DNA of 64,000 bases from a virus (IMGVR_UViG_3300036794_000053:32001-96000), one strand, 5' to 3'; positions 31,861 to 51,505 are shown, counted from the first letter of the stretch. The notes: generated from the letters alone by a model not told the origin. Made by a program: numbers and translations.

Positions 31861-32736
31861 ATGACGGCCCCAACTATTCACCCCGTTTCCACCCAGGGTG
31901 TGTCGATCCCGTACATCACGGTGGACGAGTTGAAACGTTCCCCGGTGTACACCCAGTTGCAGAAGTTGGTGCCTCGTTCTTCCGAGGCGGATCGGGACGC
32001 CGAGCTGGCCGCGATCATCCGCCGCGCGTCGGCGATGATCAACGGTGAGGTGAATCAAAACCTGGCTGCCACCACCGACTATGAGGTGGGCCGGGTCGTC
32101 GCGGACGACTGGGGGAACATCCGCATCCACACTCGCGCGAACCCGATCATCGACGTGGTGTCGATATCGATCGGGCAGAACCCGGCGAGTCTGACCCCGG
32201 TCACCGATCTGTCCAGCGTCATTCTCGATCCGTGGCGGATCACTATTCCGTCGCACGGCTCGACGAACTGGTTTTGGTCGGGGAATCTTCCGCTGGGCCG
32301 GTTCAGCCCGGGTCGGTCGATGTGGGCGGAGTGGGTGTACACGAACGGCTACCCAGCGACCGCGTTGTCTGTCGACGCGAATGCCGGTGACACCACGATC
32401 ACGGTGAAGAACGCGACGGGGATTCTCCCGAACAGCACTTTGTTGACGATCGAGGACGGTAAGTACTTCGAGCAGCTGACCCCGACCGCGGTCACCGGGA
32501 ATGTGTTGACCATCCCAGCGTTGGAGTTCGCGCACTTGGCTGGTGTTGGTGTGTCGTCGTTGCCGGATGACATCAAGGAATGCGCGTTGCTGCTGTGTTC
32601 CCGGCTGCACGATACGTGGAGTTTGACGATGGGCGCGGTCAGTGTCGACGGCTCCGGCGCGCACAACAATTCGCCGCGGCCGAAGATCATGTGTGATGCA
32701 GCGGTGATCTTGGAACCGTATCGGCGGTGGTGGTGA
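31861..32736 (+). CDS. Head-to-tail adaptor
   Basis: YITVDELK, RAS..I and LPDDIKECALLL; position after the capsid. Confidence 0.7.
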   Translation: MTAPTIHPVSTQGVSIPYITVDELKRSPVYTQLQKLVPRSSEADRDAELAAIIRRASAMINGEVNQNLAATTDYEVGRVVADDWGNIRIHTRANPIIDVVSISIGQNPASLTPVTDLSSVILDPWRITIPSHGSTNWFWSGNLPLGRFSPGRSMWAEWVYTNGYPATALSVDANAGDTTITVKNATGILPNSTLLTIEDGKYFEQLTPTAVTGNVLTIPALEFAHLAGVGVSSLPDDIKECALLLCSRLHDTWSLTMGAVSVDGSGAHNNSPRPKIMCDAAVILEPYRRWW

Positions 32737-33131
32737 GCGGATACAACACCGTCCGGAAAGCGTTGGGTGCGGCGGTTCAGGAGTACGAGCCGGACATCAA
32801 CATCTACTACTACGTGCCGCGGACGTTGGTGCCGCCGGCGGTGATTGTGCAGCCGGCGCACCGGACGGTCAGCTATCTGCAAGGCCAGTCGTCGCGGTCA
32901 GCGGAGTGGCGTTTCAACGTGATGGTCATTGTTGGCCAGGTCAGTGAGGAAGGCGCCCAGGAAATGGCGGGCGAGCTGATCTCCCCCCGCTCCCTTCTGG
33001 TCGCGGCGTTGAACAACACGAAGTTGGAGAAAGGGTACGCGCAAGTCACCGACGGAACCGTGGCGGAAACCACGATCGGTGGCGGTGTCTACACCCACGT
33101 CCAGCTGTCCGTCTGCGCGTATTCCCCGTAA
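32727..33131 (+). CDS. Tail terminator / completion protein
   Basis: VP..LVPPAVIVQP; size and position. Confidence 0.6.
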   Translation: MVVSGYNTVRKALGAAVQEYEPDINIYYYVPRTLVPPAVIVQPAHRTVSYLQGQSSRSAEWRFNVMVIVGQVSEEGAQEMAGELISPRSLLVAALNNTKLEKGYAQVTDGTVAETTIGGGVYTHVQLSVCAYSP

Positions 33132-33187
33132 CCCTCCCCCCTTTCTCGGGGGTCTCTCTGTCGCCCCCCGAACAGGAAGGTGCTGCT

Positions 33188-33412
33188 GTGCCAGCAAAAC
33201 AGTATGTGGTGGTCCGTAGGTTCCGGCGCACTGATAAGCGCACCGGTGTCGACACCATCTATGTCCCGGAGAAGCCGTACACAGGGCCGGTCGATAAGCC
33301 GTACCTGTTGGACCCGAAAGGTCCAGACGGTAAAGGTCCGCTAATCGCCGAGGTGGCCGACTCCTCTAGCTCTCCCAGCCCCTCAGCTGGCGACTCCGGT
33401 AAGGAGAAATAA
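33188..33412 (+). CDS. Small virion-operon protein
   Basis: AGGAAGG RBS. Confidence 0.6.
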   Translation: MPAKQYVVVRRFRRTDKRTGVDTIYVPEKPYTGPVDKPYLLDPKGPDGKGPLIAEVADSSSSPSPSAGDSGKEK

Positions 33413-33414
33413 CA

Positions 33415-34194
33415 ATGGCGATTGACCTTATGCAGGTTACCGAATTTTATCCCGGCTATCAGGCACAGTGGGGCCTAGAGCAATACGTCTTCTCCGCGCA
33501 AGGCAACGATATTGAACACGGCCGGAAAGCGGACAAGATTGACGGCTCCGGTTTCGGTACTCGTGTCCGTAACTCGTTGCCTGGTATGCAGGACGGCTCT
33601 TTGAAGATTAAGGGCCTGGCGGCGATGGAGAAGGGGAAGCTGAACTGGCAGCTGAACCAGTGGTTCGGCCGGGTCACCCCGATCAATGCGTGGTATGCGC
33701 TGCAGGGATTGGCCGCTCTGTCCCCCATCACCTTGCAGCCAAGCTCCATCATCGACGCGTCGATCAGCGCGAAGTTGAAGGACGCGGTCGATTTCTCGCT
33801 TGAGCTCGACGCGCGCGGCGCGTATGACGACGGGTTCATTCTGCTCTCCCCAGAGGTTCTGCTGACCGGTTCGTCCGGTACGGGTTCGCAGGACGTCAAC
33901 ACCCTGTATGGCGGGGCCACCACCACCGGTGGTGTGGGCCAGCTACACGTCCTGGCGTTTGACGGGGGTACGTCTCCGTCGGTGACGGTGACGATTGAAC
34001 ATTCGCCGGATGGTTCGTCCTGGACGAACCTGGTTTCTTTCCAGGCGCAGTCGGCGGTGGGTTCCCAGCGGATCACTCTGCCTTCCACGACCACCATTAA
34101 CCAGTATGTGCAGGCGACGTGGACGGCGACTGGTAGCCCAACGGATGTTCAGGTGCTGTGCGCCTATGCCCGTGGCGTCAACCTGGACGGCTAA
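33415..34194 (+). CDS. Major tail (tube) protein with C-terminal beta-sandwich
   Basis: Precedes the chaperones; FG.RVRNSLPGMQDGSL; VTIEHSPDGSSW domain. Confidence 0.75.
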   Translation: MAIDLMQVTEFYPGYQAQWGLEQYVFSAQGNDIEHGRKADKIDGSGFGTRVRNSLPGMQDGSLKIKGLAAMEKGKLNWQLNQWFGRVTPINAWYALQGLAALSPITLQPSSIIDASISAKLKDAVDFSLELDARGAYDDGFILLSPEVLLTGSSGTGSQDVNTLYGGATTTGGVGQLHVLAFDGGTSPSVTVTIEHSPDGSSWTNLVSFQAQSAVGSQRITLPSTTTINQYVQATWTATGSPTDVQVLCAYARGVNLDG

Positions 34195-34196
34195 TC

Positions 34197-34421
34197 ATGG
34201 GGTGGGAAGACGACCCGAACTGCCGCATCACTGTCACGTTGGACAGCGAAACGGAGGAGCTCGTCAAGAACCTTCTTGACCCGAAACGTCTCCCTGAACG
34301 ATGCCGCTGTTTCGTGAGGAAACACCCGGATTGTTGCGCACTGTGCCGGGCGAATAACTCCTGTCTCCTCATTCCTATGCATTTCCAATGCCGCTGCGTA
34401 CGCGTTTACGAATGTTTCTGA
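34197..34421 (+). CDS. Small Cys-rich protein
   Basis: DCCALC...PMHFQCRC. Confidence 0.6.
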   Translation: MGWEDDPNCRITVTLDSETEELVKNLLDPKRLPERCRCFVRKHPDCCALCRANNSCLLIPMHFQCRCVRVYECF

Positions 34422-34436
34422 AGGAGGATCTGTTTC

Positions 34437-34877
34437 ATGTCCGAGCACGCCGAGAAGGACATGTCCGTGGAGGACGACGATTTTGAGCTGATCACTAGCT
34501 CCCGTCTGTTGGGTTCCGCGCCGCCGCTCCGGAAGGAAGGGGTCACGTTGAAGGAGTGGCCCACTACTTCGGGGAAGGCGGCGCGGTTCCTGGAGTGGGA
34601 GTTGACGGCGGCCGAGTATGCGGAGTTCCTGGAAGAAGGCCGGGTGTACCGCGACGGTATCCTCAAACGGTACGACACGAAAGATGAGGACTTCCGTTTC
34701 CTGTCCCGCACTACACGTGACCCGAACAACAACCGCATCTGGACGTCGTTTGAGGCGGCGAAGCTGCAACTCGGCTCGATCGGCAAGAGCAGTGTGAACA
34801 TGCTGTTGGCGGCGGCGAACCGGGTGAACAGCGCGCGGGGCGCGGAGGGAAACTCCGAAGCAACCCCCACCGACTAA
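34437..34877 (+). CDS. Tail assembly chaperone (gpG-like)
   Basis: Lies between the major tail and TMP genes; contains in-frame G GGA AAC. Confidence 0.85.
   Translation: MSEHAEKDMSVEDDDFELITSSRLLGSAPPLRKEGVTLKEWPTTSGKAARFLEWELTAAEYAEFLEEGRVYRDGILKRYDTKDEDFRFLSRTTRDPNNNRIWTSFEAAKLQLGSIGKSSVNMLLAAANRVNSARGAEGNSEATPTD
34847..34853 (+). promoter_or_regulatory. Programmed -1 ribosomal frameshift site GGGAAAC
   Basis: X XXY YYZ heptamer; the -1 frame is open from 34847 to the stop at 35113. Confidence 0.85.
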
Positions 34878-35113
34878 TCGCGTTCGACTTCGCGTTCCAG
34901 TGGGGGTACACATCTCCGGACAAGATGCTGCGTGAGATGTCCCAGTCTGACTGGTTGGGGTGGTTGGAGTGGTTGGCGATACGGGGCCCGATCGGTGGTC
35001 CCCGTACCGACTTCTACACCTCCTTCGTGGCGATGCACGCCTCCCAGCCGCAGAAAGAGGTGTCGATCACCGCGTTCAAGATGCCGTGGATTAGAGAAGA
35101 AGACCTTCAGTAA
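34847..35113 (+). CDS. Frameshifted C-terminal part of the tail chaperone (gpT-like)
   Basis: GKLRSNPHRLIAFDFAFQWGYTSPDKMLREMSQSDWLGW... Confidence 0.8.
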   Translation, partial: GKLRSNPHRLIAFDFAFQWGYTSPDKMLREMSQSDWLGWLEWLAIRGPIGGPRTDFYTSFVAMHASQPQKEVSITAFKMPWIREEDLQ

Positions 35114-35128
35114 AGGCAGGGGACGATC

Positions 35129-38100
35129 GTGGTTGCTTCAGCGAGCCAACTCCATCTAGAGATCACAGCGGATTCCACTAACGCTGTTGATGCGATGGAT
35201 AAGGCGAAGTCCGCGATTCGTAACTTGCATGGTGAGCGGGCTTCGATCGGTATCGAGCTCACCGGCGCCCAAGAGGCCGCTAGCCAGATCGATAGGGTTC
35301 GGCAGGCGCGGGAGAAGGCGTCGGGGACTGTCAAGGTCGGTGTTGACGCTGGCGGTATGGATGAGGCTGAGGCGAAGGTGGGGTCGCTGCGCCGGGCGGT
35401 GCAGGGTTTGGCTGGGGATTTGGCTCCGTTGGGTCGGTCTCGGCAAACGTTGTCGGTTGATTCTGGTGGGATTCGGCAGGCGGCGGCGGATACGGCCGAG
35501 TTTGGTCGGCAAACCAACCAGGCCCGCGGGTCGCTCACCGGTTTGGCTAGTGATGCGCGTGGCGCGGCGGACAGCCATGAGTCGTATTCGCGGTCGGTCC
35601 GGGCCGCCACAGCATCCACCGGTTCGCTGGTCAGTGCGCATGGTGATGCGGAGCGCAGTTTCGGCCGCGTGTCAGCGAAGGCGGACGAGCTGGGTGCCCG
35701 GATGCAGTCGGTGGGTGCGCAGATGGCCGCGCATGAACGCTCAATCAACCAGTTCTCGAATTCTTCTGAGCGGGGTTTGCGTCGGGTCGCTGACGCCGCC
35801 GACGATTTGGGTGCGCGGTCGGGGAACATCGCCGCCGCGGCCAAGGAGTTGAAGGGGTTGGCGTCGGCCGCTGAGGATGCGGATCGGGCGAATGCCCGGT
35901 TGAGCAGCAGCCGCCCGCCCGCACCCCGGGAGCCGGTTCCGGTGCGGGAGTTGGCGATGGCCGGCGCACCAGCCGGCGGCGGGGGCAGCGCGGGTGGTGG
36001 GGCGCAGCCGAGTCCGTCTATGGGGTGGCGTGGCGCGACGAGCCCGAACGAGCCGGGCCGGACCGGGTTCCGGATTGACAACAACGAGCGCCGCATGCAG
36101 GCACGCCAGGGCCGACCAGCTCCTACTGGCGGTACCGGCGGTGGTACTGGTGGTGGGCCGCCGCCACCGCCGAAGGGCTACGGGGGTGGCCCAGTCGGCG
36201 GCGACGATGAGGACCCGGATGATTTGTTGGGTCGCCGGGAGGCCCGGGCGAGGCTGGAGGAGCAGGCCGCGGCTGAGAAGGAAGCCCGGCAGGAAGCGGA
36301 CAGGGCGGCCCGCGCGGCGTCTCATCAGAAGGTGATGGACCGGCTCGCGCAGGCCAAGAAAGAGGGCATGCTCAGCCGGGAACAACCACCCGAGGCGACC
36401 GCCGCGGCTAAACAACTTCAGGATGAGCAGCAGTCGCTGTGGGATGCGGCGCGTGGCGGCCCGGGGACACCGGGCCCGTATGAGACTGGGCCGCATGGTG
36501 AGGCGGGTTCTGGTTTCCGTAGCCATTTCCCGCCGCCGATGCAGGGCCCGGAGCGGCCGGTAAGCCCGGAAACGCAAGCTGATATCAACCGGGCCGCCCA
36601 GTTGCATGAGCAGGAGCATGCGAAATGGCAGGCGAAACACGACGCAAAGGCGATCGAGAAGCAAGCCGATAGGGCGGCGGCGGGTTTGGGTCCGACGGGT
36701 CCGGAGCAGTCTCCGTTTGAGTCGGACGCTGAGTATGCGACTCGGATGGCTCGTGGCGTCAAGGACACGAAGGCTGCGGAGGAGAGGACTCGGGCGAAGC
36801 TTGCCGCTCGGGGGACTGTCTCCGCGAAACACCTTGGGGAGATCGAGGAGTCGGAGCGGACGCTGAGGTACGGTCCGCCACCGGGCGACACCGCGTCTAC
36901 CGCTCCGGTGTGGAATGCGGATAAGGGCCAGTGGGAGTACCCCAATGAGCCGCCGGACAAGCAACCTCCTCCCCGCCGTGGAGGCGGCCGTGGTGGTGCT
37001 GGGGGCGCTGGTGGTAAGGAACCGGGCCCGTTCGAGGACGAGGAGAAAGCGTTAAAGTCGGTTCACGGGCCCGCGATGGTCAGCCTGCTGGGTTCTGGTA
37101 TGGCCACGATTGTTACCGCTCTCGCCGGGCTGCTCCAGGCCAAAGAGGTGATCAAGAACACGCCGTCGTTGGCGGGCGCGTTTGGTGATGCGCAGAAACA
37201 TTTCGCCCAGGGTGTTTCGGATGCGATGGACGCGAAGATTGATGCGGCCGCGGCGCCAATGCTTGAGGCCACCAAAAACAATCTGTACCAGTTTGGTAAG
37301 CAGTTGGAGAAGACCGGCGAGGCGATGCTGCCGACGTTCGCCCACGTGTTGGATCAGGCGGCGGCGCAGGCCGCGACCTCTAATGCGGCGTTGCGGCCGA
37401 TCATGCCGGGCGCGGCGACTGGGTTGGGTGACACGCTCGATTCGATTATGTCCGCGATTTCGTCGCCGGCTTCGATCGCTGGCCAGAAGTCGGTGATTGG
37501 TGCGTTGACGAGCGGGCAGGATCAGGCGGCCATCTCGGATATCACTGGCGGGGTTATCGGCGCCGGTGGCCCGGTGTTGAAAGGTGTTTTGGACGCTGGC
37601 GGCATGTTGGACAGCGCGTTCGGTGGCGGGTTCGGTGGGGGTGACAAGTCCCAACAGTTCGCGTCGGCTATTTCGGCTGGTCTCGGTGGCCGTGCCGGTT
37701 GGCTAGCGAGTGGCGGGAAAGGCGTGTTGGCCGCTCGCGCGGCCAGTGGCACAGCTGGGGCCGCTGAAGCTGCTGGCGGGGCAGCTGGTGGCGCGGGGGC
37801 CGCTGTCGGCGCCGAGACGTCTCTTGTCGGCCCCATCTCGGGTGCCGCTGCCGGTGTTGGTCTGGGTTTGCTCACCCAGTATCAGCAGCAGCAGAACGCT
37901 GAGCAACCGGGCAGTCAGGACACCACGCAGAACTTGCTTTCCGCGGCGGGCGGGTACGGCTTGGCGAAAGCGTTCGGGCTCAAAGGTGGCTGGCCGATGA
38001 TTGCTGGTTTTGCCGCCGACGCCGCGACAAGTGAAGCGCCGATACCGAAAGACTGGAAGACCGCGATTGACAAAACCGTGACCGGCGCCGGTCTTGGCGC

Positions 38101-40840
38101 ATGGGGCGGGAAGGCTTTCGGCCCGGAAGGCGCGATCCTGGGCGGCATTATTGGTGGTGTTGAGAGCGGCGCGCCCGCCATTATTAACGCGCTGGGTGGG
38201 ACCACGTCGTCTGGTGCGGGGAAAGCAGCCACCGGTTTGGGGGCTATGTGGAACAGCACCGATGTTATCACGTCCCCTCTTCAAAACATCGCTAAGGGAA
38301 CTGATTTCAACGACACCGCTTTCGGTAAGGATTTCAAGCAGTTCCGGCAGGGTGTGGCGGATGTAATGCACGGGCCGCTGGAACACCTCGCCGGCAGCGC
38401 GCAAGACCCGATCGCTAAGGCGCTCTACGGCCCGCAGGGACTCATCAACCCAGGTCTGTTCGGACCAACATCCGCACCGACGCTGCCGACCCCACCGCCT
38501 GGTACCGGGATGATCCCCGCACCTGACATCGACACGCAGGCGTTTCCTCCCGGCAAGAAAGAGAACACTGTCGTCCAAGCCCCAGGGCCCGGGAAGCCTG
38601 GAGGAGTTCTCCAGCGGGTACAGGACGCCAACGGAAACACAATTGGTTACCGGAACACGTTTGATTCTGGTGCGACTAGTTCTTGGGTGTCGACTCCTAA
38701 GGGCGGAAGTGAGCTTGATACTACGACCGCTCCGGATAAGCAGGGCTTGCAGGATCTAACTAGGTCTATTCAGGCTCCTGGTGATTCGAAGGTGCGTAGT
38801 CAGGTTATCCACAATGCCAACGCTTTTGGTGGCGGCACGGCGGATGTTCCTACCTATACGTCCCCGCCGGCTCCCGCGCTGCCACCGGCTGCCGCCGCGC
38901 CGGCACCAACGCAGGGAAAGGGCCCATTCCATAGCACCCAAACCTTTACTAAGGGTGGGGTCGGCCACACCAATACGTATGACCGTACGGCTGATGGGTC
39001 GAGCGCTTATCACCAGACGTCCACCGCTGGCGAAGATATGACCACCTATAAGGACGCTGCTGGCGATAAGCAGACTGTTGGCCAGTGGGTGGACAAGCAG
39101 GGGAAGGTGCATCAGCTTAAGGGGAAGGTTCAGGTTGGCGGCGCGGGTCCCCCTGGCGAGGATGAGTATGGGGGTATCCCGGTTCCTGGTGAGGTGGCGA
39201 AGCAGAAGGCGGCGCAGCAGAACGCGTTGGACCAGTTGAATCGTGCTCGGGGTATTCCTGGGCCTGGTTCGGGTGGTCCTCGTCCTGACCTCGGTGGGAG
39301 GCTGGGCGGTGCCGCGTCCGCGTCGGCGGGCACGCTCGGTAAGGTTGGGACCGCGACCGCTGGTGCGAGTACGAGCATGGGTGGTTTGGCCGCGGAAACG
39401 AATAAGGCTAATACGGCGTTTCGTCAGACTGGTGCGGCGACCACAGCGGCTACGGCGCATATGAAGCAGCTGAATCAGTTTAAGCAACTGCAGCAGCAGC
39501 ATCAGAAAACGCAGACGGCGGGTCAGAAACTGACTCAGGCGTTGGGTTTGGCTCAGGGTGCTGGTGGTGTGGCCGCTGACCATATGCAGAATGTGCAGAA
39601 TTCCGCTGGTCAGGCGCAGGCGGGTTTGCAGGCGGTCCATCAGGGTTTGACTGCGCAGTCGGCCACGCTGGCGGCTGGTGCTGGTGGCGCCCCGCAGGCA
39701 CCACAACTGCAGCCGCCGCCGCAGCTGCAGCCGCAGCAAAGGCCCGGTGGGCAGGTGGCCGGCGGGGAGGGTCTCGCCGCTCAGGCCAGGGACAAGCAGC
39801 AGCAGCAGCCATCCGCTGGCGGTGGTGCTGCTGGCGCCCAGCTGGACCCGGCTAAGGGTGGTGGTGATCTCGCTCAGGCGCAGAGCCAACTTGTCGCCGG
39901 TGTGTCGGATGCCGCTGATTTGACGGCGAAGGCTGGTTCTTTGACGGGGAAGAAGGAGGAGGAACACCTTAAGCAGGCGAAGGGCCCGGCGGATAAAGGG
40001 ACCAGCAGTTTCCTCGATTCGATGGAAAGTTCTTTGCAGCAGGGCGCGGATAAGGGCAGCGGTGGTGGTGGTGGCGCTGGGTGTGCCGCTGGCGCGAAGG
40101 TCGCCGATAAGGCCGCGAGTTGTGGTAAGAGCGAGGCGAAGTCGCAGTCGCCGTCTCGGGTGTTTATGGAACTCGGCGAGAACATGACGTTGGGTTTGAA
40201 GATTGGTATGGAGGAAGGCGTCAAGGGCAGCTTTGAGCAGCTCGGCGCGGACATGAGTACTGGTTTGGCTATTGGTTTGGTCGACGGTATTAAGCATCGT
40301 GGCTATTTGGCTGGTCCGACGATTCAGAGTGTGGTGAATCAGGTCGGTGGCCAGATGTCGTCGGGTATGGGTTCGGCGGTGGACAAATCGGTGCAGTCCG
40401 CCGTGAATTCGGTGAGCCAGTTCGACTACAACGAGGCGCTGTCCGGTGGGTTGGGCGCTGGTGTCACGGCCGCGTCGAACGGGGTGAGCCCGATCGCGCA
40501 GGACTACGGTTTGATGATCGGTTATACGTGGGCTGAGAATGTGGTGACGGGCACCCAAAGTGTGCTGCAGTCCAGCCAGTTCGCCGATCTGGTGGTGCCG
40601 CAGTTTAAGTCGGCGCTAGCCCAGGCCGATCTCGGCAAACTGGGTTTGTTGCCGCCGGCTGGTTCGGGCGCCCAGTACTACACCACCACTTCGGGTTCGG
40701 CTGGGATGGTGTCGATGTCGCCGGTGGTGAACGCGACGATCATGGTGAATGTGGATGGTTCACCGATGGAAACGGTCGCGCAGCAGGTGGTGGACACGTC
40801 GCTGAACAATCTGACGAACTCGATCAGCGCACAAAGGTAG
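35129..40840 (+). CDS. Tape measure protein 1 (1903 aa)
   Basis: Directly after the chaperones; Ala/Gly-rich; SPSRVFMELGENMTLGLKIG C-terminal TMP motif. Confidence 0.85.
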   Translation: MVASASQLHLEITADSTNAVDAMDKAKSAIRNLHGERASIGIELTGAQEAASQIDRVRQAREKASGTVKVGVDAGGMDEAEAKVGSLRRAVQGLAGDLAPLGRSRQTLSVDSGGIRQAAADTAEFGRQTNQARGSLTGLASDARGAADSHESYSRSVRAATASTGSLVSAHGDAERSFGRVSAKADELGARMQSVGAQMAAHERSINQFSNSSERGLRRVADAADDLGARSGNIAAAAKELKGLASAAEDADRANARLSSSRPPAPREPVPVRELAMAGAPAGGGGSAGGGAQPSPSMGWRGATSPNEPGRTGFRIDNNERRMQARQGRPAPTGGTGGGTGGGPPPPPKGYGGGPVGGDDEDPDDLLGRREARARLEEQAAAEKEARQEADRAARAASHQKVMDRLAQAKKEGMLSREQPPEATAAAKQLQDEQQSLWDAARGGPGTPGPYETGPHGEAGSGFRSHFPPPMQGPERPVSPETQADINRAAQLHEQEHAKWQAKHDAKAIEKQADRAAAGLGPTGPEQSPFESDAEYATRMARGVKDTKAAEERTRAKLAARGTVSAKHLGEIEESERTLRYGPPPGDTASTAPVWNADKGQWEYPNEPPDKQPPPRRGGGRGGAGGAGGKEPGPFEDEEKALKSVHGPAMVSLLGSGMATIVTALAGLLQAKEVIKNTPSLAGAFGDAQKHFAQGVSDAMDAKIDAAAAPMLEATKNNLYQFGKQLEKTGEAMLPTFAHVLDQAAAQAATSNAALRPIMPGAATGLGDTLDSIMSAISSPASIAGQKSVIGALTSGQDQAAISDITGGVIGAGGPVLKGVLDAGGMLDSAFGGGFGGGDKSQQFASAISAGLGGRAGWLASGGKGVLAARAASGTAGAAEAAGGAAGGAGAAVGAETSLVGPISGAAAGVGLGLLTQYQQQQNAEQPGSQDTTQNLLSAAGGYGLAKAFGLKGGWPMIAGFAADAATSEAPIPKDWKTAIDKTVTGAGLGAWGGKAFGPEGAILGGIIGGVESGAPAIINALGGTTSSGAGKAATGLGAMWNSTDVITSPLQNIAKGTDFNDTAFGKDFKQFRQGVADVMHGPLEHLAGSAQDPIAKALYGPQGLINPGLFGPTSAPTLPTPPPGTGMIPAPDIDTQAFPPGKKENTVVQAPGPGKPGGVLQRVQDANGNTIGYRNTFDSGATSSWVSTPKGGSELDTTTAPDKQGLQDLTRSIQAPGDSKVRSQVIHNANAFGGGTADVPTYTSPPAPALPPAAAAPAPTQGKGPFHSTQTFTKGGVGHTNTYDRTADGSSAYHQTSTAGEDMTTYKDAAGDKQTVGQWVDKQGKVHQLKGKVQVGGAGPPGEDEYGGIPVPGEVAKQKAAQQNALDQLNRARGIPGPGSGGPRPDLGGRLGGAASASAGTLGKVGTATAGASTSMGGLAAETNKANTAFRQTGAATTAATAHMKQLNQFKQLQQQHQKTQTAGQKLTQALGLAQGAGGVAADHMQNVQNSAGQAQAGLQAVHQGLTAQSATLAAGAGGAPQAPQLQPPPQLQPQQRPGGQVAGGEGLAAQARDKQQQQPSAGGGAAGAQLDPAKGGGDLAQAQSQLVAGVSDAADLTAKAGSLTGKKEEEHLKQAKGPADKGTSSFLDSMESSLQQGADKGSGGGGGAGCAAGAKVADKAASCGKSEAKSQSPSRVFMELGENMTLGLKIGMEEGVKGSFEQLGADMSTGLAIGLVDGIKHRGYLAGPTIQSVVNQVGGQMSSGMGSAVDKSVQSAVNSVSQFDYNEALSGGLGAGVTAASNGVSPIAQDYGLMIGYTWAENVVTGTQSVLQSSQFADLVVPQFKSALAQADLGKLGLLPPAGSGAQYYTTTSGSAGMVSMSPVVNATIMVNVDGSPMETVAQQVVDTSLNNLTNSISAQR

Positions 40841-40851
40841 GTGAGTGAACA

Positions 40852-43800
40852 ATGGCCGGGCTACACCTCGAAGTCACAGCGGAAGATTGCCGCCCCGCTG
40901 ACACCATGCGAAGGGTCGGCGAAGCGGTTCGGGAATTGAGCCGTGAAGACTTACGCGAGGATGTCGAGGTTGAAGCCGCGGAAGACGCGGCCCGGCGGTT
41001 GGCGAGGGTGCGTGAGGCGTGGGCCGGCTCCTCACGCACCGTCAAGTTTGAGATCGAAACCGAGGACGAGTCCGAGGAGAAGATCGGGTCTTACCGCCGC
41101 GCGGTGCAGGGTTTGGCCAAAGAGTTCGACGTCATCGGCATGACCAGGCACACCGTCATGGTCGACGGCGGGTTGTTGCGCCGCGCGTCCGGTGACATGG
41201 ACGAGTTCTCCCGGCAGGTTGACCGTGGTCGTGTCATGGTGCGCGCAATGGGCGAATCGGCGGACGCCGCCGGTGACGGTCTGGATGTGTATTCGGGTTC
41301 GTTGCGGGCGGGTGAGCGGGACACCCGTTCTTTGGTGGGGGCTCACGCGGATGCGGAACGCAGTTTCGCGGAAAGCACTTCCCGCATGGACGATATCGGG
41401 TCGCGTCTGAATGTTGTGGGTAAGGCCGCGGATTACGAGTCGCCGCTAGATCGCGGTGGCGTTCCTTCATTTGGGTCGGCGCCGTCGGAACCACGGGTGC
41501 CTGCTTTAGCTGGCGCCGGTGGTCAGGCTCCGCGTGGGGCGCAGATGACCAGGTATTACAGGGCGCCGCAGAAAGCGCGGCCTCGTTCCCCGGAAGACCC
41601 GAAGGATCGGGCCGCGCGCCGTGCTGTGGTTCGGGAGGCTGAGCGGATAATGCGGGGCGGGGGACCACCTCAGGGGCCTCGTAAGCCACCCGGCCCCCCT
41701 AGTGGCGGTTCCGGTGGCACTCCCGGCGGCGGCGATGAGTCGTTCAATGAGCGGAGGCTTCACCACTTTCTGGGCAGCGAAGACTTCGAGGCGGAAATGG
41801 AGAAGGAGCGCCAGCGGTTGCTGGAGGAACGCCGGAATGAGGCGCTTCAGCGCGCAATCGAACGCGGCAAGGACCTTCCCCGGCCTGATGCTGATATGCA
41901 GGTGCCGCCGGCTACGGTGGCACCCGGCTCCGAGGAAGCGTTGGGTCGGACACGGCAACAGCCGAGCCCAGGGGAAGTCGCTGACGCCACCCAGGAGAAG
42001 CGGGTGCCGCGGTCTTCCCCGCAGGAGGACTCTTTAGAGAAAGCCCGTAGAGAAGCTGGCGAGAAACTGGACCAAGCCTTCGAGAAGTACAAGAAGGAGC
42101 ATTCGGAGGAGAGTCTTAGGGAATGGGCGCGCGCCCAGGCGCACTACGACGTCGCAAGGGCAAACCTGCGGGATGCCGCCAACAAATTGCCTCCTGCCCC
42201 ACCGAGCGCGCCTAGCCCGCCCGTGCAGCCGAGTGCGCCCAAACCGCCTGTGCAGCCGAAGGCCCCGAGCGTGCCCCCTACGGGTGGTGGCGCGGGCACT
42301 GCGCCGGCCCCACCTGCGCAGCCGGCGCCTCCCGCGCAACCTCCCCCAGCTGCCCCGCCCAGCGCGCCCCAACCCCCTGCTGCGCCCCCGGCGCCCCCGG
42401 CTCCCGCGGAACCTCCTCCGTCCCAGCCGGTTCCTCCGCGTCCTGCCGATCAACCTCCGGCTGGTCCTCCAGCTGAACCGTCGGCCGGAGGACCGCCGCC
42501 TACAGCCGCCGGGGGTGAGCGCGGCGGGGGTGGGGGTAAGGAACCTGGTCCGTTCGAACGGGAAGCGCAGGCGTTCAAGTCCAGCCTTGGCGCGGGCATG
42601 GTCAGTGGTTTCCTGGCTGGGACGGCCACCATGGTTAGCGCCATGGCTGGTTTGGCCGAAGCCAAAACGGTGATCAAGAACACCGGCGAGTTGAAGAACG
42701 CTTTTAGCGACGCGAAGGCCGAGTTCGCCAAAGGCATTCGAGACAACGCGAACGCTAACCTTGACGCCGGATTCGCACCCCAACTGGAACACCTGGGTGA
42801 TTCGTTTAACCAGTTCGGCAAGAGTCTGGAACAGACCGGCCAGTCTATGTTGTCGACGGCAGCTAATCTTTTGAACCAAGGGGCGGCGCAAGCCGCTATC
42901 TCCAGTGCGGCGCTGCGGCCTATCATGCCCGGTGCCGGCGCTAGCTTGGGTAACACCATTGACTCGCTGCTCGGCGCGGTGTCGTCACAGGCTTCCATCG
43001 CGGGCCAGAAGAGCGCCATTGGCGGTTTGACCAGCGCCGACGATCAGTCGGCCATCTCGGATATCGCCGGTGGCCTCATCGGCGTTGGTGGCCCAGCGCT
43101 GAAAGCGGTGGCGGACATTGCTGGGATGGTCGACAGCGCGTTCGGCGGCGGGTTCGAAGATGAGTCTCAGAAGTTCGCTGCCGGCATTTCCGTTGCCGCT
43201 GGTGCGCGCGCGGGTTGGGTAGCCGGCGGCCCGGTGGGTGCGCTGGCCGGCGCCGGCCTTGGCCTTCTCACCCAGCTCCAGCAGGGGCAGGGGCAACAAG
43301 ACACCACCCAAGGTCTGCTTACCGCGGCTGGGGGCTACGGACTTGGCAAGGCTTTCGGGCTCAAGGGCGGCGCGTCGATGCTTGTCGGTCTCGGGGCCGA
43401 TTTCCTGACGTCTGAGGTTTCGCTACCGCCCGAGTGGGAAGACACCGCTCAGAAAGCCGTGCAGGGCGGCGGCCTGGGGGCGGTCCTAGGTAACGCTCTC
43501 TTCGGGGGGAAGGGCGCGATCGCGCTCGGTCTCGCTGGCGCTCTCCTCAATGCGCAGGATTCCGCCGGGGCCGCGATGGGACTCACCTCGAAGTCTGGTT
43601 GGGGGAAGATCGGCAGCTCGGCTGAGTCGGGACTGCTGGATTGGGTGAAGGACGCGGGGCTCGGCGTCCAGGGCGCGCATGAGGCGTTCGGTCAGGACTT
43701 CGCTTCGTTCCGGCAGGGTGTGGCGGACGTAACGCAAGGACCGCTGCAGGACATTGCCGGCGCCGCTCACGACCCAATCGATCAGGCGGTGTTTGGCCAA

Positions 43801-45999
43801 CACGGGTTCCTTATGCACCCTGGCATGTTCGGTCCCACATCTCCGGTGGCTATGCCGGATGTGCCGGGTGTGCAACCCGGCTCGGGGATGATGTCTGTTC
43901 CGGATATCGATCAGCAGATGTTCCCGCCGGGTTCGAAGCAGGACACGGTCACTACTCCGCTGGGGACGTTCCAGCGTGCCCAGGGCGATGACGGCGCGCT
44001 CAGTTTCCAGAACCAGTTCATTTCGGGTGCGAGCAGCGCTTACCAGTCGGCTCCGGGGCAGGGCAGCGTGCTTGACACGCAGTCCGCTCCGGACGCGTCG
44101 GGGGCGTATCAGCAGCAAATTGTTACGCAGGACCCGGCTTCTGGTATTACACGTACTCAGGAGCAGGATTTTGATCCTGCGAAGGGTGGTCTCCAGCGGC
44201 CGCTGGTCCCTGTGTATACGTCACCTACGCCCCCCCAGCCTAAACCGGGCGAAGACGATGCGATTGGCCAGCCCAAGAAGAAGGGGCCCGGCGGACCGAA
44301 GGATAAGGGCGATTTGCGGGGTGAGAAGCACACTGGTGGCTTCCACATCGGGTTGTGGCATTCGTTGAGCGGCGGCCAAAAGCTCGTCCAGAAGCCTCAG
44401 AAGCCCCAGAAGGATAAGAACAAGCCCCAACCCGCTCCCCCTACGGGCGGCGGTGGTGGCGGCGGTTCCAGTCTGAACAGTCCTAGTGCGATATCGGACT
44501 TCCTCAGCCAGCTGAACTCTGATGCGTCTTCGGCTCCGGCGCCGTTGAGTCAGGTGGGGCATGCGTCGGCGGCGGCGAAGTCGCACTTGGCGAACGTGTC
44601 GGCGAACTCGAACAAGGTGAACACCGCGTTCCGCCAGACCGGTGTGGATGCCGCGTCGGCTACGGCGCAGACCCGGCAGCTTGACCATTCGACTCAACTG
44701 CAGCGGCAGCTTGAGCAGACTCACCAGTCAAACGCTGGCGTCAATAGGTCGTACAGCCAGGTAGGGGCGGCTGGTAGCCAAACTGCCGACAGCATGCAGA
44801 ATGTGCAGAACACTTCGGGCCAGGCGCAGCAGACGTTGCAGGCGAATCGGCAGTCGTTGACTCCGCAGCCACCGGCCCCGCCAAAGCACATCCCGCCTCC
44901 GGTGCACGCTCCGCAGCAACCACCACAGCAGCAGCAGCCGGGTGTGGGCGATGCCAACATGTCGCCGCTGAAGGACTCAGCGGCACAACAACAGCAGCAG
45001 CAGCCCGCTAGCGCCGGTGGTGACATTGCGCCGCCCCCGGACCCATCATCGGCCGGCGCGGACCTGGCTATCTACCAGGAACACACGGTAGAGATGCTGT
45101 GGGATGCCGGGTTCGTCCTGGCCGGTGTGGAGAGCCCAACCGAAATGACCGAGAAACACATCGGCCATATGGGCCAAAACGTTGGTCACGACACCGGCAA
45201 TGATGCGAAGGGTGGTTCCGCCGGGTCTCAGGTGATGGAGGAGGCCACTAAGGCTGGCGGCGGTAAAGGCGGTTCGTGCGCCACCGGTAAGGCCGAGGCG
45301 AAGAAAGCTGGTAGTTGTGCGAGTGGCGCCGCTGGGGCTAAGTCGCCGGCTACGAAGTGGATGCCGATCGGCGCGGATTTGACCGCTGGTATGGATGTTG
45401 GTATGCGGCGGGACCGGTTGGAGAGCAGCGGCCATAACGCGGCCAGTGCGTGGGCGAGTCGTATGGCGGACGGTTTGGAGCATGGCGGCTACACCAGGGC
45501 GGCTGACTCGGTTGTCGGTCAGCTCGGCGGCCAGCTCGGGCTGGGCGACGCCGTGAACAACGCGCTAGCGAACGTCGCTAACACCATCGCCCAGTTCAAC
45601 TACAACTCGGAGTTGGCTGGCGCGTTCGGGGCCGGGCTGGTCGCCGCGGCGAATGGTGTCACTCCGATCGCGCAGGATCACGGGTTGATGATCGGGTACG
45701 TGTTCGCCGAGAACATCGTGACCGGCGCGCAGAATGTGCTGCAATCGGCGGCGTTCGCGGACCTCGTCGTCCCAGCCTTCAAGTCGGCGTTGGCGCAAGC
45801 TGACCTCGGCAAATTGGGACTGCTCCCTCCCGCTGGTCGGGGTGCGCAGTATTACACCACCACTTCTGGTAGCGCTGGGATGGTGTCGATGACACCGGTG
45901 GTGAACACGACGGTGACCGTGTCTGATTCTGGTGGGACGCCGTTGCAGTCCACTAACAAGGTGTTGAGGGCGTCGTGGACTAACCGTAACGCCGCGTAA
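40852..45999 (+). CDS. Tape measure protein 2 (1715 aa), paralog of TMP1
   Basis: Collinear shared blocks with TMP1 from N- to C-terminus; SPATKWMPIGADLTAGMDVG motif. Confidence 0.8.
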   Translation: MAGLHLEVTAEDCRPADTMRRVGEAVRELSREDLREDVEVEAAEDAARRLARVREAWAGSSRTVKFEIETEDESEEKIGSYRRAVQGLAKEFDVIGMTRHTVMVDGGLLRRASGDMDEFSRQVDRGRVMVRAMGESADAAGDGLDVYSGSLRAGERDTRSLVGAHADAERSFAESTSRMDDIGSRLNVVGKAADYESPLDRGGVPSFGSAPSEPRVPALAGAGGQAPRGAQMTRYYRAPQKARPRSPEDPKDRAARRAVVREAERIMRGGGPPQGPRKPPGPPSGGSGGTPGGGDESFNERRLHHFLGSEDFEAEMEKERQRLLEERRNEALQRAIERGKDLPRPDADMQVPPATVAPGSEEALGRTRQQPSPGEVADATQEKRVPRSSPQEDSLEKARREAGEKLDQAFEKYKKEHSEESLREWARAQAHYDVARANLRDAANKLPPAPPSAPSPPVQPSAPKPPVQPKAPSVPPTGGGAGTAPAPPAQPAPPAQPPPAAPPSAPQPPAAPPAPPAPAEPPPSQPVPPRPADQPPAGPPAEPSAGGPPPTAAGGERGGGGGKEPGPFEREAQAFKSSLGAGMVSGFLAGTATMVSAMAGLAEAKTVIKNTGELKNAFSDAKAEFAKGIRDNANANLDAGFAPQLEHLGDSFNQFGKSLEQTGQSMLSTAANLLNQGAAQAAISSAALRPIMPGAGASLGNTIDSLLGAVSSQASIAGQKSAIGGLTSADDQSAISDIAGGLIGVGGPALKAVADIAGMVDSAFGGGFEDESQKFAAGISVAAGARAGWVAGGPVGALAGAGLGLLTQLQQGQGQQDTTQGLLTAAGGYGLGKAFGLKGGASMLVGLGADFLTSEVSLPPEWEDTAQKAVQGGGLGAVLGNALFGGKGAIALGLAGALLNAQDSAGAAMGLTSKSGWGKIGSSAESGLLDWVKDAGLGVQGAHEAFGQDFASFRQGVADVTQGPLQDIAGAAHDPIDQAVFGQHGFLMHPGMFGPTSPVAMPDVPGVQPGSGMMSVPDIDQQMFPPGSKQDTVTTPLGTFQRAQGDDGALSFQNQFISGASSAYQSAPGQGSVLDTQSAPDASGAYQQQIVTQDPASGITRTQEQDFDPAKGGLQRPLVPVYTSPTPPQPKPGEDDAIGQPKKKGPGGPKDKGDLRGEKHTGGFHIGLWHSLSGGQKLVQKPQKPQKDKNKPQPAPPTGGGGGGGSSLNSPSAISDFLSQLNSDASSAPAPLSQVGHASAAAKSHLANVSANSNKVNTAFRQTGVDAASATAQTRQLDHSTQLQRQLEQTHQSNAGVNRSYSQVGAAGSQTADSMQNVQNTSGQAQQTLQANRQSLTPQPPAPPKHIPPPVHAPQQPPQQQQPGVGDANMSPLKDSAAQQQQQQPASAGGDIAPPPDPSSAGADLAIYQEHTVEMLWDAGFVLAGVESPTEMTEKHIGHMGQNVGHDTGNDAKGGSAGSQVMEEATKAGGGKGGSCATGKAEAKKAGSCASGAAGAKSPATKWMPIGADLTAGMDVGMRRDRLESSGHNAASAWASRMADGLEHGGYTRAADSVVGQLGGQLGLGDAVNNALANVANTIAQFNYNSELAGAFGAGLVAAANGVTPIAQDHGLMIGYVFAENIVTGAQNVLQSAAFADLVVPAFKSALAQADLGKLGLLPPAGRGAQYYTTTSGSAGMVSMTPVVNTTVTVSDSGGTPLQSTNKVLRASWTNRNAA

Positions 46000-46006
46000 A
46001 TAGGCA

Positions 46007-46071
46007 AGCCGTCACCCCCGTCCAAGCAAAAAATGGGCGGGGGTGACGGGGCTGCGCCTTTTTTCTTCTTT
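46007..46071 (+). terminator. Hairpin / terminator after TMP2
   Basis: ccgtcacccccg...cgggggtgacgg followed by a T-rich tract. Confidence 0.65.
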
Positions 46072-46091
46072 CGCCGAATTGGTGAGGCCCC

Positions 46092-47756
46092 ATGCCGTCT
46101 TCATTGACCACCATCACCTACCAGCCCACTTCCTCTCCGCAGCTGGGTAACTGGAGTGTGGTGGGTGCCGCGACCGGATGGCAAGCCGTTTCGTCTGGCA
46201 CGAATCTGGAGTATGTGGAGTTGGCGCCGGGGATTTGCCGGCTACCGTCACAAGTTATCCAGTTCGGCTTCCCCACCCCGTCAATCCCTACCGGCGCCCG
46301 GGTGTATTCGGTGGGTATTCGCCGCACCGTGCAACTCGTTGCACCCACACCACCGGCAGTGAACTGCTTCCACTGGTTCCGCTGCCTCAGCGGTTTGATT
46401 CAGGTCGCTGGGCAGGCGCAGCAGGAGCACACCCAGTTCTTCTCCTCCGCGCTCCCGACGAATCCAGTGCCGGGCGGGTGGATGACGGAAAGCGTGTACA
46501 CCTCCACGACCGCGCCGGATGGCACGGCGTGGGACCTGACCACGAATCTGTCCTCGGGGAACTTCATCTACGAAATGGGCCGCGGCGACACCGCCAGCAC
46601 CACCATCTTTGTGTCCGAGGTGTATCTGGACATCACCTACCAGACACAGTCGACGGTGACGGTGACCGCGCCGACCGGGACGGTGACCACCACCCAACCG
46701 ACGGTGACATGGACGTATGCGTCGGCGAACTCCCAACCTCAGCAGGGCTATCAGGTTGCGGTGTACACGGCTGCGCAAACCGCCGGTATGGGATTCGCCC
46801 CGTTTGTCACGACCCCGATCGATGGAACCAGCGGAGTCGTCCTGGGTGAAGCCCTGCAATGGACGATGAACATTGATTTGACCAACGGCTCGTATGCGGC
46901 GTACGTCCAGTCTGAGGCGCAGTGGGCGGGGCCGGGGAGTTTCTTCTCGGCGACCGGTTCGACCACGTGGACGCGTTCGGTGTCGTCGCCACCGCCGAAT
47001 GCGTCGTTCACCTCGGCGGTATTCGATGCGGAGAACAATCGTGTCGCATTGACTTTCGCCCCGGGTGGGTCGTCGCCGGCCACGGTCGCGTTCACGGTGT
47101 TCGCCAGCCGCGACGGCGGGCAGTCGTACAACCCGATTCCGAGTTTGACGTATGTGCCGGCGCAGGGCATGAGCCCGATCACCGGATACGACTATGTGGC
47201 GCCGCTGAACAGGCTGTCCCAGTATTTCGTGTTGGCTTACAGCGGGTCACCACTGCAGGCCGCCGCGTCAGCATCGGCTGTTTTGTCGGTTACTCCGACT
47301 GGTGACCGAGCGTGGTTGAAGGACCCGTCGAATCCGATTCTCAACACCGTGCTCCCGATCGGCGCTCCGAAGCAAAGCGACGAAGGTATCAAGATCACGA
47401 AGAGGCGCATGCAAGGCGCCTTCCAGTTACTGGGCGGGGTCGGCACACAAGTGCTACCGGTCATTGTGTCCGGGCCAACCTACGGCGACGAATACGAATT
47501 CGAACTCATCTTCGTCGAAGGCGACCCCACCGTGCCAATGACGCTGTGGGCAACGGTCGACGAACTCGACCGCTCCGGCAACACCCTGCTCCTACAACTA
47601 CCTGATGGCACGCAGTTGTGGGTGGTGACCGGACCGGGCGCTACCAGCCAGGACACCGAAGAGCATTACAACGCGGTCGCGGGTGATCCGACGGTCACTT
47701 TGTGGCGCCGCCGAAAACTAACCATGACGGAGACAAATCCGCCGGCGTTCTATTAG
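46092..47756 (+). CDS. Minor tail protein (distal-tail-like, with Ig/FN3-like domains)
   Basis: First gene after the TMPs; PTVTWTY, DYVAPLN, AWLKDP.NP and LLLQLPDG. Confidence 0.7.
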   Translation: MPSSLTTITYQPTSSPQLGNWSVVGAATGWQAVSSGTNLEYVELAPGICRLPSQVIQFGFPTPSIPTGARVYSVGIRRTVQLVAPTPPAVNCFHWFRCLSGLIQVAGQAQQEHTQFFSSALPTNPVPGGWMTESVYTSTTAPDGTAWDLTTNLSSGNFIYEMGRGDTASTTIFVSEVYLDITYQTQSTVTVTAPTGTVTTTQPTVTWTYASANSQPQQGYQVAVYTAAQTAGMGFAPFVTTPIDGTSGVVLGEALQWTMNIDLTNGSYAAYVQSEAQWAGPGSFFSATGSTTWTRSVSSPPPNASFTSAVFDAENNRVALTFAPGGSSPATVAFTVFASRDGGQSYNPIPSLTYVPAQGMSPITGYDYVAPLNRLSQYFVLAYSGSPLQAAASASAVLSVTPTGDRAWLKDPSNPILNTVLPIGAPKQSDEGIKITKRRMQGAFQLLGGVGTQVLPVIVSGPTYGDEYEFELIFVEGDPTVPMTLWATVDELDRSGNTLLLQLPDGTQLWVVTGPGATSQDTEEHYNAVAGDPTVTLWRRRKLTMTETNPPAFY

Positions 47757-48163: not shown

Positions 48164-48628
48164 ATGACCGCGTATGAGGCGACTACGGGTTCAGCTCTAT
48201 CGGGCACTATAGGGCTGTCGGTAACCGCTGCCACATATGAGGCGAGAATCGCGCAAATCGTATTCAGCGGCGGCTTCACCGACACCGTGGGCGGCACATC
48301 TTCAGTTTTCCTTGCGAACGTTTACAGTGGTTCCACAGTTTCCGGCGGATCGGCGGGGCCTGGTTTTGCGCTTCGTCAAGGTGCGCCGACAGGTGCAGCA
48401 ACAGTGCGCGTGAGTCCTACTGTCTCAGCTTTTGGCACCCAGCTCGATGCTAATGCAGGTCTCGGCGGTGGGTTTAGTTACACGCACCAATCGCCATACG
48501 ACTTCATCATTTCGCCAGGCACTACCGTCGTCGCTGAGATGTCTTCTTCAGGTAGCGGCAGCGGCACCTTTACAGAGCTCTGCATCACTATCTATTACGA
48601 AGAGTTGCGGCTTTCTTGGCCTTACTAG
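48164..48628 (+). CDS. Beta-rich virion protein
   Basis: Ser/Gly/Thr-rich; visibly more AT-rich DNA. Confidence 0.6.
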   Translation: MTAYEATTGSALSGTIGLSVTAATYEARIAQIVFSGGFTDTVGGTSSVFLANVYSGSTVSGGSAGPGFALRQGAPTGAATVRVSPTVSAFGTQLDANAGLGGGFSYTHQSPYDFIISPGTTVVAEMSSSGSGSGTFTELCITIYYEELRLSWPY

Positions 48629-49883: not shown

Positions 49884-51505
49884 TGGCTGAGGTCGATACC
49901 GCGTCCGCGATCACCGCCAGTCTGTCCACCGCCGTCACCTATGCGATTGCCCCCGCAGCCGAAATCGATTCGGCGGGGCAAGTGTTCAACCCGCTCGTCG
50001 GATACTGGCTGTCTGATCCGTTGACGCTGCCGGGTAACCCAGTGACCGGTTCTGTTGTGCGCTGGACCGAAACCACTCCAGTCAATACAACGGTCACAGT
50101 CGAGACCAGCATCAACAACGGGGCCAGCTGGGACCTTGCGGTTAACGACCAGCCCGTTCCGCGGCTGCTGCAGGGCGATACCACTACTCAATCGGTGCAG
50201 GCGAGAGTAACGCTGACTCGGGCCGCAGCGCCGACGCTCTACCCGAGCTCGTCGCTCTACCCAAGTCCGTCGCTTTACCCGACCGGTTCGCCGCCGTCGG
50301 TGAGCTATTTCGAAATGGACGTGTCGGTCGACGCCAGCGTGGACGAGCTGGTGCCGATTGGTATGGGCATGATTGATGACGTCACCACTCACGCTACGAG
50401 TGGCACGATGGGTTCGGGTTCGAGCACCAACGTTTCCACGAGTACTTCGGTGGTGAGTCAGGGTGGCGGCCAGTTCGGCGGTGGTATCGCTATCAAGGTG
50501 CACGCCCAGGATTTGAGCTATGCGATCAAGCGGAACGTGTGGGAGCAGCCTTTCACGGTACCGAGTGGGTTGTTGTACACCGATGCTGTTAAGGCGATGG
50601 TGGTTGATCGGTTGCCGTCGCAGACCGCATTCAACTTGTCGTCCACTACGGCGACTACCCCGTTGCTGTTGTATGGCGCGCAGCAGGGTGGCGACCCGTG
50701 GACGGACGTTCAAGAGCTGGCGGCGGCGATTGGTTTCGAAGCGTTCTTTGACGCTACTGGTGTTTTTGTGTGTCGTCCGGTGCCGGACCCGTCTACGGGT
50801 GATCCGGTGTGGGCTTTTGATGAGACTGTTGTTCCGTTGGTGGCTGAGGCCCAGTTCGCTTTGTCGAGCGAGCAAACCTTCAACGACATTGTTGTGGTTG
50901 GTCAGAGTACGAGTTCGACTAACCCGTTCAGCGCGGAAGCATACGATAACGATCCGAACTCGCCGACATACATCCTCGGGCCGTATGGGCGCGTGTCGGA
51001 ACGAGTCAACTCGTCACTGATCACCAGTCAGTATCAGGCGCAGGCCATGGCCTACGCGGCGTTGTATGCGTCGTTGGGTGCCGCGAACACGGTCACGCTC
51101 ACGGTTGTTCCGATGCCGGCGTTGGAGCCGGGGGACATTATCAAAGTGGTGTGCGGGAATGTGAAAGCGGACGGGACCTACATGATCAACAGCATGGTCA
51201 CACCGCTTTCGCCGGCTGATCCACAGCAGCTGACATGTTTCCGCCAGTCGACTTTCGGCACCACCGGACTGGCCGGCGCATTCTCCGTCACCGACGGTGT
51301 GACCGTATCCGGCTCCTCAACCATCACATCGAATACCGCGAACTTCACCAGCGGCGATATCGGCGCCTCCGTCTACGGCGACGGCATTCCGGTAAACGCC
51401 ACCATCATCTCGGTCACCAACACCACCACCGCGGTCATCAGCGCAAACGCCACCATCAGCGCCACCAACGTCTACATCGTCGTGAGTGTCGGCTCCGGCA
51501 CATAA
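49883..51505 (+). CDS. Minor tail hub protein (DUF5047-like C-terminal half)
   Basis: ELVPIG, QDLS, DPW..VQELA.AIG, FNDIVVVG, DNDPNSPTY..GPYGRV and PALEPGD. Confidence 0.7.
   Translation: MAEVDTASAITASLSTAVTYAIAPAAEIDSAGQVFNPLVGYWLSDPLTLPGNPVTGSVVRWTETTPVNTTVTVETSINNGASWDLAVNDQPVPRLLQGDTTTQSVQARVTLTRAAAPTLYPSSSLYPSPSLYPTGSPPSVSYFEMDVSVDASVDELVPIGMGMIDDVTTHATSGTMGSGSSTNVSTSTSVVSQGGGQFGGGIAIKVHAQDLSYAIKRNVWEQPFTVPSGLLYTDAVKAMVVDRLPSQTAFNLSSTTATTPLLLYGAQQGGDPWTDVQELAAAIGFEAFFDATGVFVCRPVPDPSTGDPVWAFDETVVPLVAEAQFALSSEQTFNDIVVVGQSTSSTNPFSAEAYDNDPNSPTYILGPYGRVSERVNSSLITSQYQAQAMAYAALYASLGAANTVTLTVVPMPALEPGDIIKVVCGNVKADGTYMINSMVTPLSPADPQQLTCFRQSTFGTTGLAGAFSVTDGVTVSGSSTITSNTANFTSGDIGASVYGDGIPVNATIISVTNTTTAVISANATISATNVYIVVSVGSGT

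Follow-up and report, generated by a model that had tools for sequence, protein, structure and literature searches.

The stretch of DNA analysed here (the window; 64,000 nt, IMGVR_UViG_3300036794_000053:32001-96000) corresponds to bases 32001-96000 of one 106,197-bp contig and comes from an uncultured soil phage, the best-matching sequencing run being a soil metagenome; all coordinates are window positions unless another locus is named. In its tail module, two long open reading frames, ORF1 and ORF2, follow one another on the plus strand, and a first-pass annotation had taken them for two intact, tandem, diverged paralogues of the tape measure protein (TMP). Tandem frames of the lengths it gave are indeed present: ORF1 starts with GTG and encodes 1903 aa, ORF2 starts with ATG and encodes 1715 aa, and the two lie in different frames, 11 nt apart, and are open over their full length (Table 1). 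Public gene calls are shorter, starting ORF1 at Met23 (1881 aa) and ORF2 at Met583 (1133 aa) and cutting off positions 35129-35194 and 40852-42598, respectively. ORF1 is likewise 1903 aa long in a second gene call, made on a separately assembled Logan contig, and the long forms of both ORFs are supported by the homology of their N-terminal domains to those of related phages. Because the public calls shorten both genes, an annotation-based survey would miss ORF2 as a full-length paralogue, which serves as a warning for annotation. Fusion of ORF1 and ORF2 by read-through or frameshifting was considered and found unsupported, as the frames differ and the spacer has no slip site. A similarity between the regions upstream of the two genes (AAAGGCAGGGGA versus AAAGGTAGGTGA) was rejected as a duplication junction because it is too short and too similar to a ribosome-binding site (RBS).

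BLASTP aligned the two proteins in one stretch of 258 residues at 58% identity (E = 6e-65) and in another of 189 residues at 41% (E = 3e-34), and pairwise MAFFT alignment gave 718 identities over 1681 aligned positions (43%), with the copies collinear from end to end. Every motif listed in the first-pass annotation as shared occurs in both copies with its order kept, and the Pro/Gln/Gly-rich linkers between blocks are, as it had described, unlike between copies; alignment gaps are limited to Pro/Gly/Gln-rich linkers and one 39-residue Gly/Ala insert. The predominance of third-position changes in the C-terminal block was also reproduced: positions 40604-40738 and 45778-45912 differ at 26 bases, distributed 8/2/16 over the three codon positions, with residue changes in 3 of 45 codons. 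The best DNA identity between the copies is 68-80%, and no tract exceeds 80%.

The assignment of both ORFs as TMPs is supported by four converging lines of sequence evidence: position, a C-terminal profile, a match to the TMP of Staphylococcus phage 80alpha, and hydrophobic segments together with a C-terminal region predicted, at low confidence, to be helical. ORF1 begins 15 nt after the stop of the GT tail assembly chaperone, and ORF2 comes after ORF1 without a chaperone pair of its own. The slippery heptamer GGGAAAC lies at the same site in 7 of 7 syntenic relatives, within GAGGGAAACTCCGA (GCGGGAAACTCCGA in L006). A profile of the last 264 residues, searched in a library of 1.84 billion proteins, retrieved 3285 proteins at E ≤0.001, 44 of them below 1e-30, and in most of the top matches the domain sits at the C-terminal end of a protein of 900-1900 aa. 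Five of six distant proteins that share this domain match PHROG TMP families (1686, 4372, 5493, 1272 and 167); in four of the six (P0008, P0015, P0020 and P0027) the match falls on or just before the shared domain (up to 1.6e-42), and P0012 matches two PHROG TMP families on its N-terminal part. The profile also matches 80alpha TMP gp57 (6v8i_CF) at E = 5.7e-8, on an SPSREFM..G motif that reads SPSRVFMELG in ORF1 and SPATKWMPIG in ORF2. In both copies, as in relatives, the central domain begins with hydrophobic, membrane-like 19-mers, and AF2 models the C-terminal 264 aa as helical with a terminal beta-hairpin and helix, at low confidence (pLDDT 61, pTM 0.25). The tape-measure identity claimed at first pass is thus upheld by synteny, the slip site and the profile links to 80alpha and the PHROG TMP families.

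Seven independent syntenic relatives were available for comparison: L002 (the same phage as L003 and L008), L004, L005, L006, L007, L009 and L010. All seven have the order major tail gene, G, T, one TMP and then a homologue of the 554-aa gene, with flanking genes 50-87% identical to those of the window, and in the six for which the full gene was read (L002, L004, L005, L006, L007 and L010) the single TMP is 1334-1943 aa long. A search of IMG/VR with the C-terminal profile found 4 loci, all single-copy; ORF2 by itself had no match in IMG/VR, and a metagenome scan returned one 1.1-kb fragment. The first-pass annotation had proposed seeking the same tandem in related contigs, and every one of the seven proved single-copy. 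Because these relatives carry a single TMP, the duplication is, by this comparison, private to the lineage of the window phage.

In a maximum-likelihood tree of eight full-length proteins, ORF1 and ORF2 are sisters (support 100/100, stem 0.80) with terminal branches of 0.43 and 0.70, respectively. Region by region, sister support is 99-100 in the middle, at residues 1400-1640 and in the C-terminal region, and the copies have in common derived features that the other relatives lack, namely the FRQGVADV block and a Cys pair. Saturated synonymous divergence (dS) and the want of any DNA tract above 80% identity indicate that the duplication is old, and together with the sister relation they uphold the tandem paralogy and old age first proposed. 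We infer that, in the simplest history, the TMP frame by itself would have been duplicated in tandem within a single transcription unit; no other structural-gene duplicates were found in the 106-kb genome, which encodes a single chaperone pair, a single tube protein and a single set of tip proteins. A separate tandem occurs in L002:16668-17630 (also L008:12597-13514), where a 154-aa tail gene that the window has once (48164-48628) is matched by two paralogues of 156 and 157 aa; the TMP is therefore not the only gene of this tail module to show tandem duplication.

Nei-Gojobori ratios of nonsynonymous to synonymous divergence (dN/dS) between ORF1 and ORF2 are 0.23 in the central block, 0.24 in the C-terminal block, 0.37 in the N-terminal block and 0.43 overall, within a full range of 0.23-0.45, all of them upper bounds because dS is saturated (>1). 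These values are below the ratio near 1 named at first pass as contrary evidence and, with the open frames, give both intact copies a signature of purifying selection, although a pairwise value is blind to selection after the copies came to lie side by side. The third-codon-position G+C content (GC3) of ORF2 is 0.67-0.78 along its whole length. At 49 columns that are invariant in eight other family members, ORF1 keeps 44 residues and ORF2 36 (73%); at 227 near-invariant columns the counts are 159 and 137, and private losses of conserved residues number 17 in ORF1 against 39 in ORF2.

The asymmetry is concentrated at the ends. In region-wise trees the ORF2/ORF1 branch ratio is 2.7 for residues 1-200, 1.06 for 630-1260, 1.3 for 1400-1640 and 1.8 for 1640-1903, which marks copy 2 as a diverged copy whose middle, by these trees, evolved as slowly as that of copy 1 and whose two ends evolved approximately twice as fast. 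The N-terminal domain of ORF2 is 38-39% identical to those of relatives. At the other end, the family has a beta-hairpin with V/L-D-G followed by a helix ending in L..SI..Q-R/V-G, kept in approximately 75 of 80 representatives, including very distant ones. ORF1 follows this pattern except for the final G (...VNVDG...AQQVV...NLTNSISAQR), and ORF2 has lost it (...VSDSGG...TNKVL...SWTNRNAA), with its stop codon at the conserved Q position; the 45 residues just before this terminal end are 93% identical between copies. The lineage-private duplication and the end-specific divergence of the second copy, as read from these alignments, go beyond what the first-pass annotation had claimed.

Table 1 Features of the late module around the two TMP genes (window positions).
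Feature	Position	Strand	Observations
Large terminase	23681-25165		Late module, 5′ of the TMP pair
Portal	25158-27038		Late module, 5′ of the TMP pair
587-aa capsid-region gene, head-tail adaptor, tail terminator			Between portal and major tail gene in the listed late-module order
Major tail (tube) protein, 259 aa	33415..34194	+	Match to phrog_9522 (1.6e-24); 74-87% identity in seven syntenic relatives
Tail assembly chaperone G, 146 aa	34437..34877	+	Between major tail gene and TMP; 47-71% identity in relatives
Slippery heptamer G_GGA_AAC	34847..34853	+	In register with the G frame; -1 frameshift for the GT chaperone
Chaperone T extension, -1 frame	34919..35113	+	Open frame, TAA stop at 35111-35113; homologous stretches of relatives 35-65% identical
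TMP copy 1 (ORF1), 1903 aa	35129..40840	+	Canonical slot after G/GT; shorter branch; ends ...SISAQR like the family
Spacer, 11 nt	40841..40851	+	RBS-like GGTGAG; no hairpin (fold z-score +1.6)
TMP copy 2 (ORF2), 1715 aa	40852..45999	+	N-terminal, hydrophobic central, SP-motif and C-terminal domains all present; longer branch at both ends
Hairpin, 14 bp, GC-rich, then T-run	46011..46072 (hairpin 46011-46047)	+	Terminator- or attenuator-like; fold z-score -4.3
Conserved tail gene, 554 aa	46092..47756	+	Directly 3′ of the single TMP in relatives, 50-79% identity

The TMP is usually treated as one gene fixing one tail length; one end of the protein and the other are in contact with the tail tip and with the part of the tail next to the head. 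Work on tail assembly describes chaperones that coat the TMP, docking of this template on the tip, and a TMP that links tip to head and is implicated in the trigger of genome release; the protein is also believed to clear the way for DNA across the host envelope and to pass on the signal for ejection, and studies of contractile tails suggest that it helps to form a conduit through the membrane (PMC9022992). Guided by this established biology, which is the reason for casting copy 1 as a tip-anchored ruler and copy 2 as an end-altered partner (PMC9022992), we propose, with a probability of approximately 0.6, that two full-length paralogous TMPs occupy a single TMP slot and have resided together for a long time, copy 1 as the main ruler and copy 2 as a sub- or neofunctionalized partner. 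The TMP reading frame alone would have been duplicated in tandem, and both copies would be translated from the same late transcript and served by one chaperone pair, so that they may compete for or share the chaperones and the tip complex. Copy 1 would be the main ruler anchored in the tail tip. At 0.15 nm per residue (PMC3556154), the predicted tail length would be approximately 285 nm for ORF1 and approximately 257 nm for ORF2. Copy 2 would still reach the lumen of the tail, as part of mixed trimers or in some of the tails, and would act, once ejected into the envelope of the host, as another form of the entry device, its membrane-active middle fully constrained and its contacts at both ends changed.

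A more specific form of this proposal is that the tail core is made from two different TMPs, either as mixed trimers, in which the conservative chain would be anchored in the tip and the diverged chain would offer a second surface for membrane entry, or as two tail populations of approximately 285 and 257 nm. We put this forward tentatively and think it somewhat likelier to fail than to hold. The 188-residue difference in length and several indels speak against an in-register heterotrimer and count against the ruler-and-partner reading as a whole, as do four further points. Neither ORF has a direct PHROG match, and Pfam gave no match at E up to 0.1 for either, so that their assignment to the TMPs depends on synteny, a single PDB profile match and transitive homology. 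A continuous helical ruler is hard to reconcile with the Pro/Gly/Gln-rich stretches of at least 100 residues, which cannot be helical. The sister relation is not settled for the N-terminal 200 residues (p-AU 0.37). Finally, pairwise dN/dS cannot separate the branches, and most of the divergence may predate juxtaposition, having accumulated between orthologues in two phages.

Copy 2 could instead have been repurposed, as an accessory ejected or membrane-active protein or as a spare or decoy where host or prophage systems target the TMP to stop DNA from entering. A membrane-like middle as constrained as that of copy 1, faster-evolving ends and the lost terminal motif would all be compatible with such a role, and a homologue, P0004, lies on a 2-Mb contig where the 10 kb to either side are free of structural genes. 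Yet copy 2 keeps the N-terminal domain and, ahead of its terminal hairpin, the block that is 93% identical, carries no enzymatic or other added domain detectable with Pfam, and belongs to the tail operon, with the conserved hairpin downstream of it; we therefore consider repurposing unlikely.

The second copy might also be a recent acquisition, the single TMP of a sibling phage placed beside the resident gene by illegitimate recombination, in which case the redundancy would be young and possibly transient and the selection signal a relic of its life as an orthologue. Recent capture is conceivable because TMPs in this group are mosaic, L007 grouping differently in the middle and C-terminal trees, and because N-terminal sisterhood is unsettled; nor can pairwise dN/dS date the juxtaposition. 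Against it, the copies are sisters with near-maximal support over the other three regions and share the derived blocks and the Cys pair, and copy 2 lacks residues and a terminal motif retained by approximately 75 of 80 single-copy members, which would be unexpected had it been functioning as the only TMP. Words from the locus moreover occur in a close relative from a second study. On balance, recent capture appears rather improbable.

An assembly artefact is unlikely. The first-pass annotation had named a chimeric join of two related phages as a possible refutation; a separate Logan assembly of the probable source run contains a 19,193-nt contig that spans 33000-47707, and hence both genes, with 0 differences and a flat depth of 18.6. 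In a run from another study (X2), 25% of the sampled 31-letter words of 37000-45000 are present, and short low-depth contigs fall on both genes. Among the X2 contigs listed (16 of 190 pieces), none crosses the ORF1/ORF2 junction, so that this run supports the presence of the locus sequence and not the join. A search with ORF2 for short fragments from the second study recovered nothing, low-complexity words dominating the result. Joints in the read mapping, such as 35402 to 45519, were examined as deletions and rejected: they match approximately 20 letters per side with foreign letters between, and were taken as low-complexity cross-matches. It is true that the genome derives from a soil metagenome assembly and that related phages co-occur in samples of the same project (L002 and L007 come from one sample), points in favour of a head-to-tail joining of two such phages within the TMP region. 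However, besides the evidence of the Logan contig, both copies are complete, the flanks are single and syntenic, and the 11-nt join contains no misleading shared repeat; as no DNA tract exceeds 80% identity between the copies, an assembler would have had no repeat to jump across. A chimera of this kind is highly improbable. The idea that copy 2 is a decaying, functionless duplicate, to which its faster overall rate, its shortened and diverged C-terminal end and a public gene call covering only the last 1133 codons might point, is scarcely credible given 1715 codons open at saturated synonymous divergence, a GC3 of 0.67-0.78 throughout, 73% of invariant columns kept and a middle evolving at the rate of copy 1.

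The module around the TMP pair is of siphovirus type, and no sheath-like gene was noticed among the genes scanned. The 554-aa gene matched no Pfam or PHROG family; other tail proteins 3′ of the pair include a 540-aa member of phrog_1887 and a collagen-like fibre protein. In 50,697 records of cultured phages, tblastn with ORF1 and with its C-terminal domain found no match, and portal identity to any cultured phage is at most 33%. A scan of GTDB genomes found no homologue, and no host was therefore assigned. The last 46-72 residues of the 540-aa protein (51350-51487) recur at 47-57% identity in a gene just upstream of the window (genome bases ~31872-32009) and in a head-module gene of L002 (5988-6203), and form a small C-terminal module common to these genes.

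Several known systems resemble the locus in part. In 80alpha (PDB 6V8I / 9MU2), as in the window, a long protein is encoded after the tail chaperones, and the C-terminal profile aligns to gp57 residues 1000-1102, over a motif SPSREFM..G....G...G close to its C-terminus; unlike the window proteins, gp57 has 1154 aa, the similarity covers approximately 80 residues only, and the rest of the window C-terminal domain with its QRG ending has no PDB match. We take gp57 to be encoded by a single gene. The arrangement of major tail gene, G/GT with -1 frameshift and ruler is also that of lambda, whose gpH is the textbook tail-length ruler, but there is no detectable sequence similarity and lambda has one ruler gene. 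There is further likeness to the single TMPs of the seven relatives and to PHROG families 1686, 4372, 5493, 1272 and 167, in module order, slip site, N- and C-terminal domains and the hairpin after the gene, with the difference that each relative has one TMP and the window phage two, a departure from the usual one-TMP state. Two potential TMP genes in one genome have been described in the Staphylococcus jumbo myophages MarsHill, Madawaska and Machias (bioRxiv 10.1101/2020.12.14.422802). Those phages have contractile tails, and one of their copies, annotated as a tail lysin, has peptidoglycan-hydrolase domains; in the window phage, in contrast, the module is of siphovirus type in a 106-kb genome, neither copy has an enzymatic domain, and there is no homology. 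Searches of the full-text literature found no siphovirus described as having full-length TMP paralogues in tandem; their coverage is incomplete and gives no proof of absence.

A stable pair of diverged rulers raises the questions of whether TMPs can be heteromeric, which chain sets tail length, and whether the roles of tip anchoring and membrane entry can be divided between paralogues. If the core does contain two TMPs, one virus would be equipped with two forms of the ruler and DNA-entry device. The end-specific acceleration predicts that the middle of copy 2 is functional and that its ends have changed partners, and it points to residues for swaps in a tractable model phage. Should the pair be simply redundant, it would still offer a clean natural example of duplication of a phage's longest structural gene.

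No hairpin lies between ORF1 and ORF2, which, with the RBS-like site in the 11-nt spacer, speaks for their co-expression, as does the placement of the hairpin after ORF2. A hairpin follows the single TMP in L005:14768-14800, L006:14627-14662, L007:10428-10457 and L010:10732-10770, at the same position as that after ORF2 in the window. These post-TMP hairpins are strong and GC-rich, with stems of 13-15 bp and a U/C-rich tract after them in the window, L005 and L007, and their sequence is wholly different in each phage. From its position and form, the element looks like a terminator, attenuator or mRNA stabilizer between the tube/ruler and tip genes.

Two homologues have features of their own. 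P0004 (L001:10001-15676) is a full-length protein of 1891 aa encoded in a 2.03-Mb metagenome contig beside RuvB, a resolvase and MgtC; no recognizable phage structural gene occurs within 10 kb on either side, and its neighbours have no PHROG match. P0004 may belong to an unusual prophage or may be a TMP-like gene that has been orphaned or domesticated. The single TMP P0155 (L010:4898-10726) has four copies of the SPS+.F..G motif and, at residues ~1380-1650, approximately 270 residues that are nearly all His, Gly, Asp, Arg and Trp (HHGGHHGDHDDDDHDG-type repeats), a composition that suggests a possible metal-binding insert inside the tape measure.

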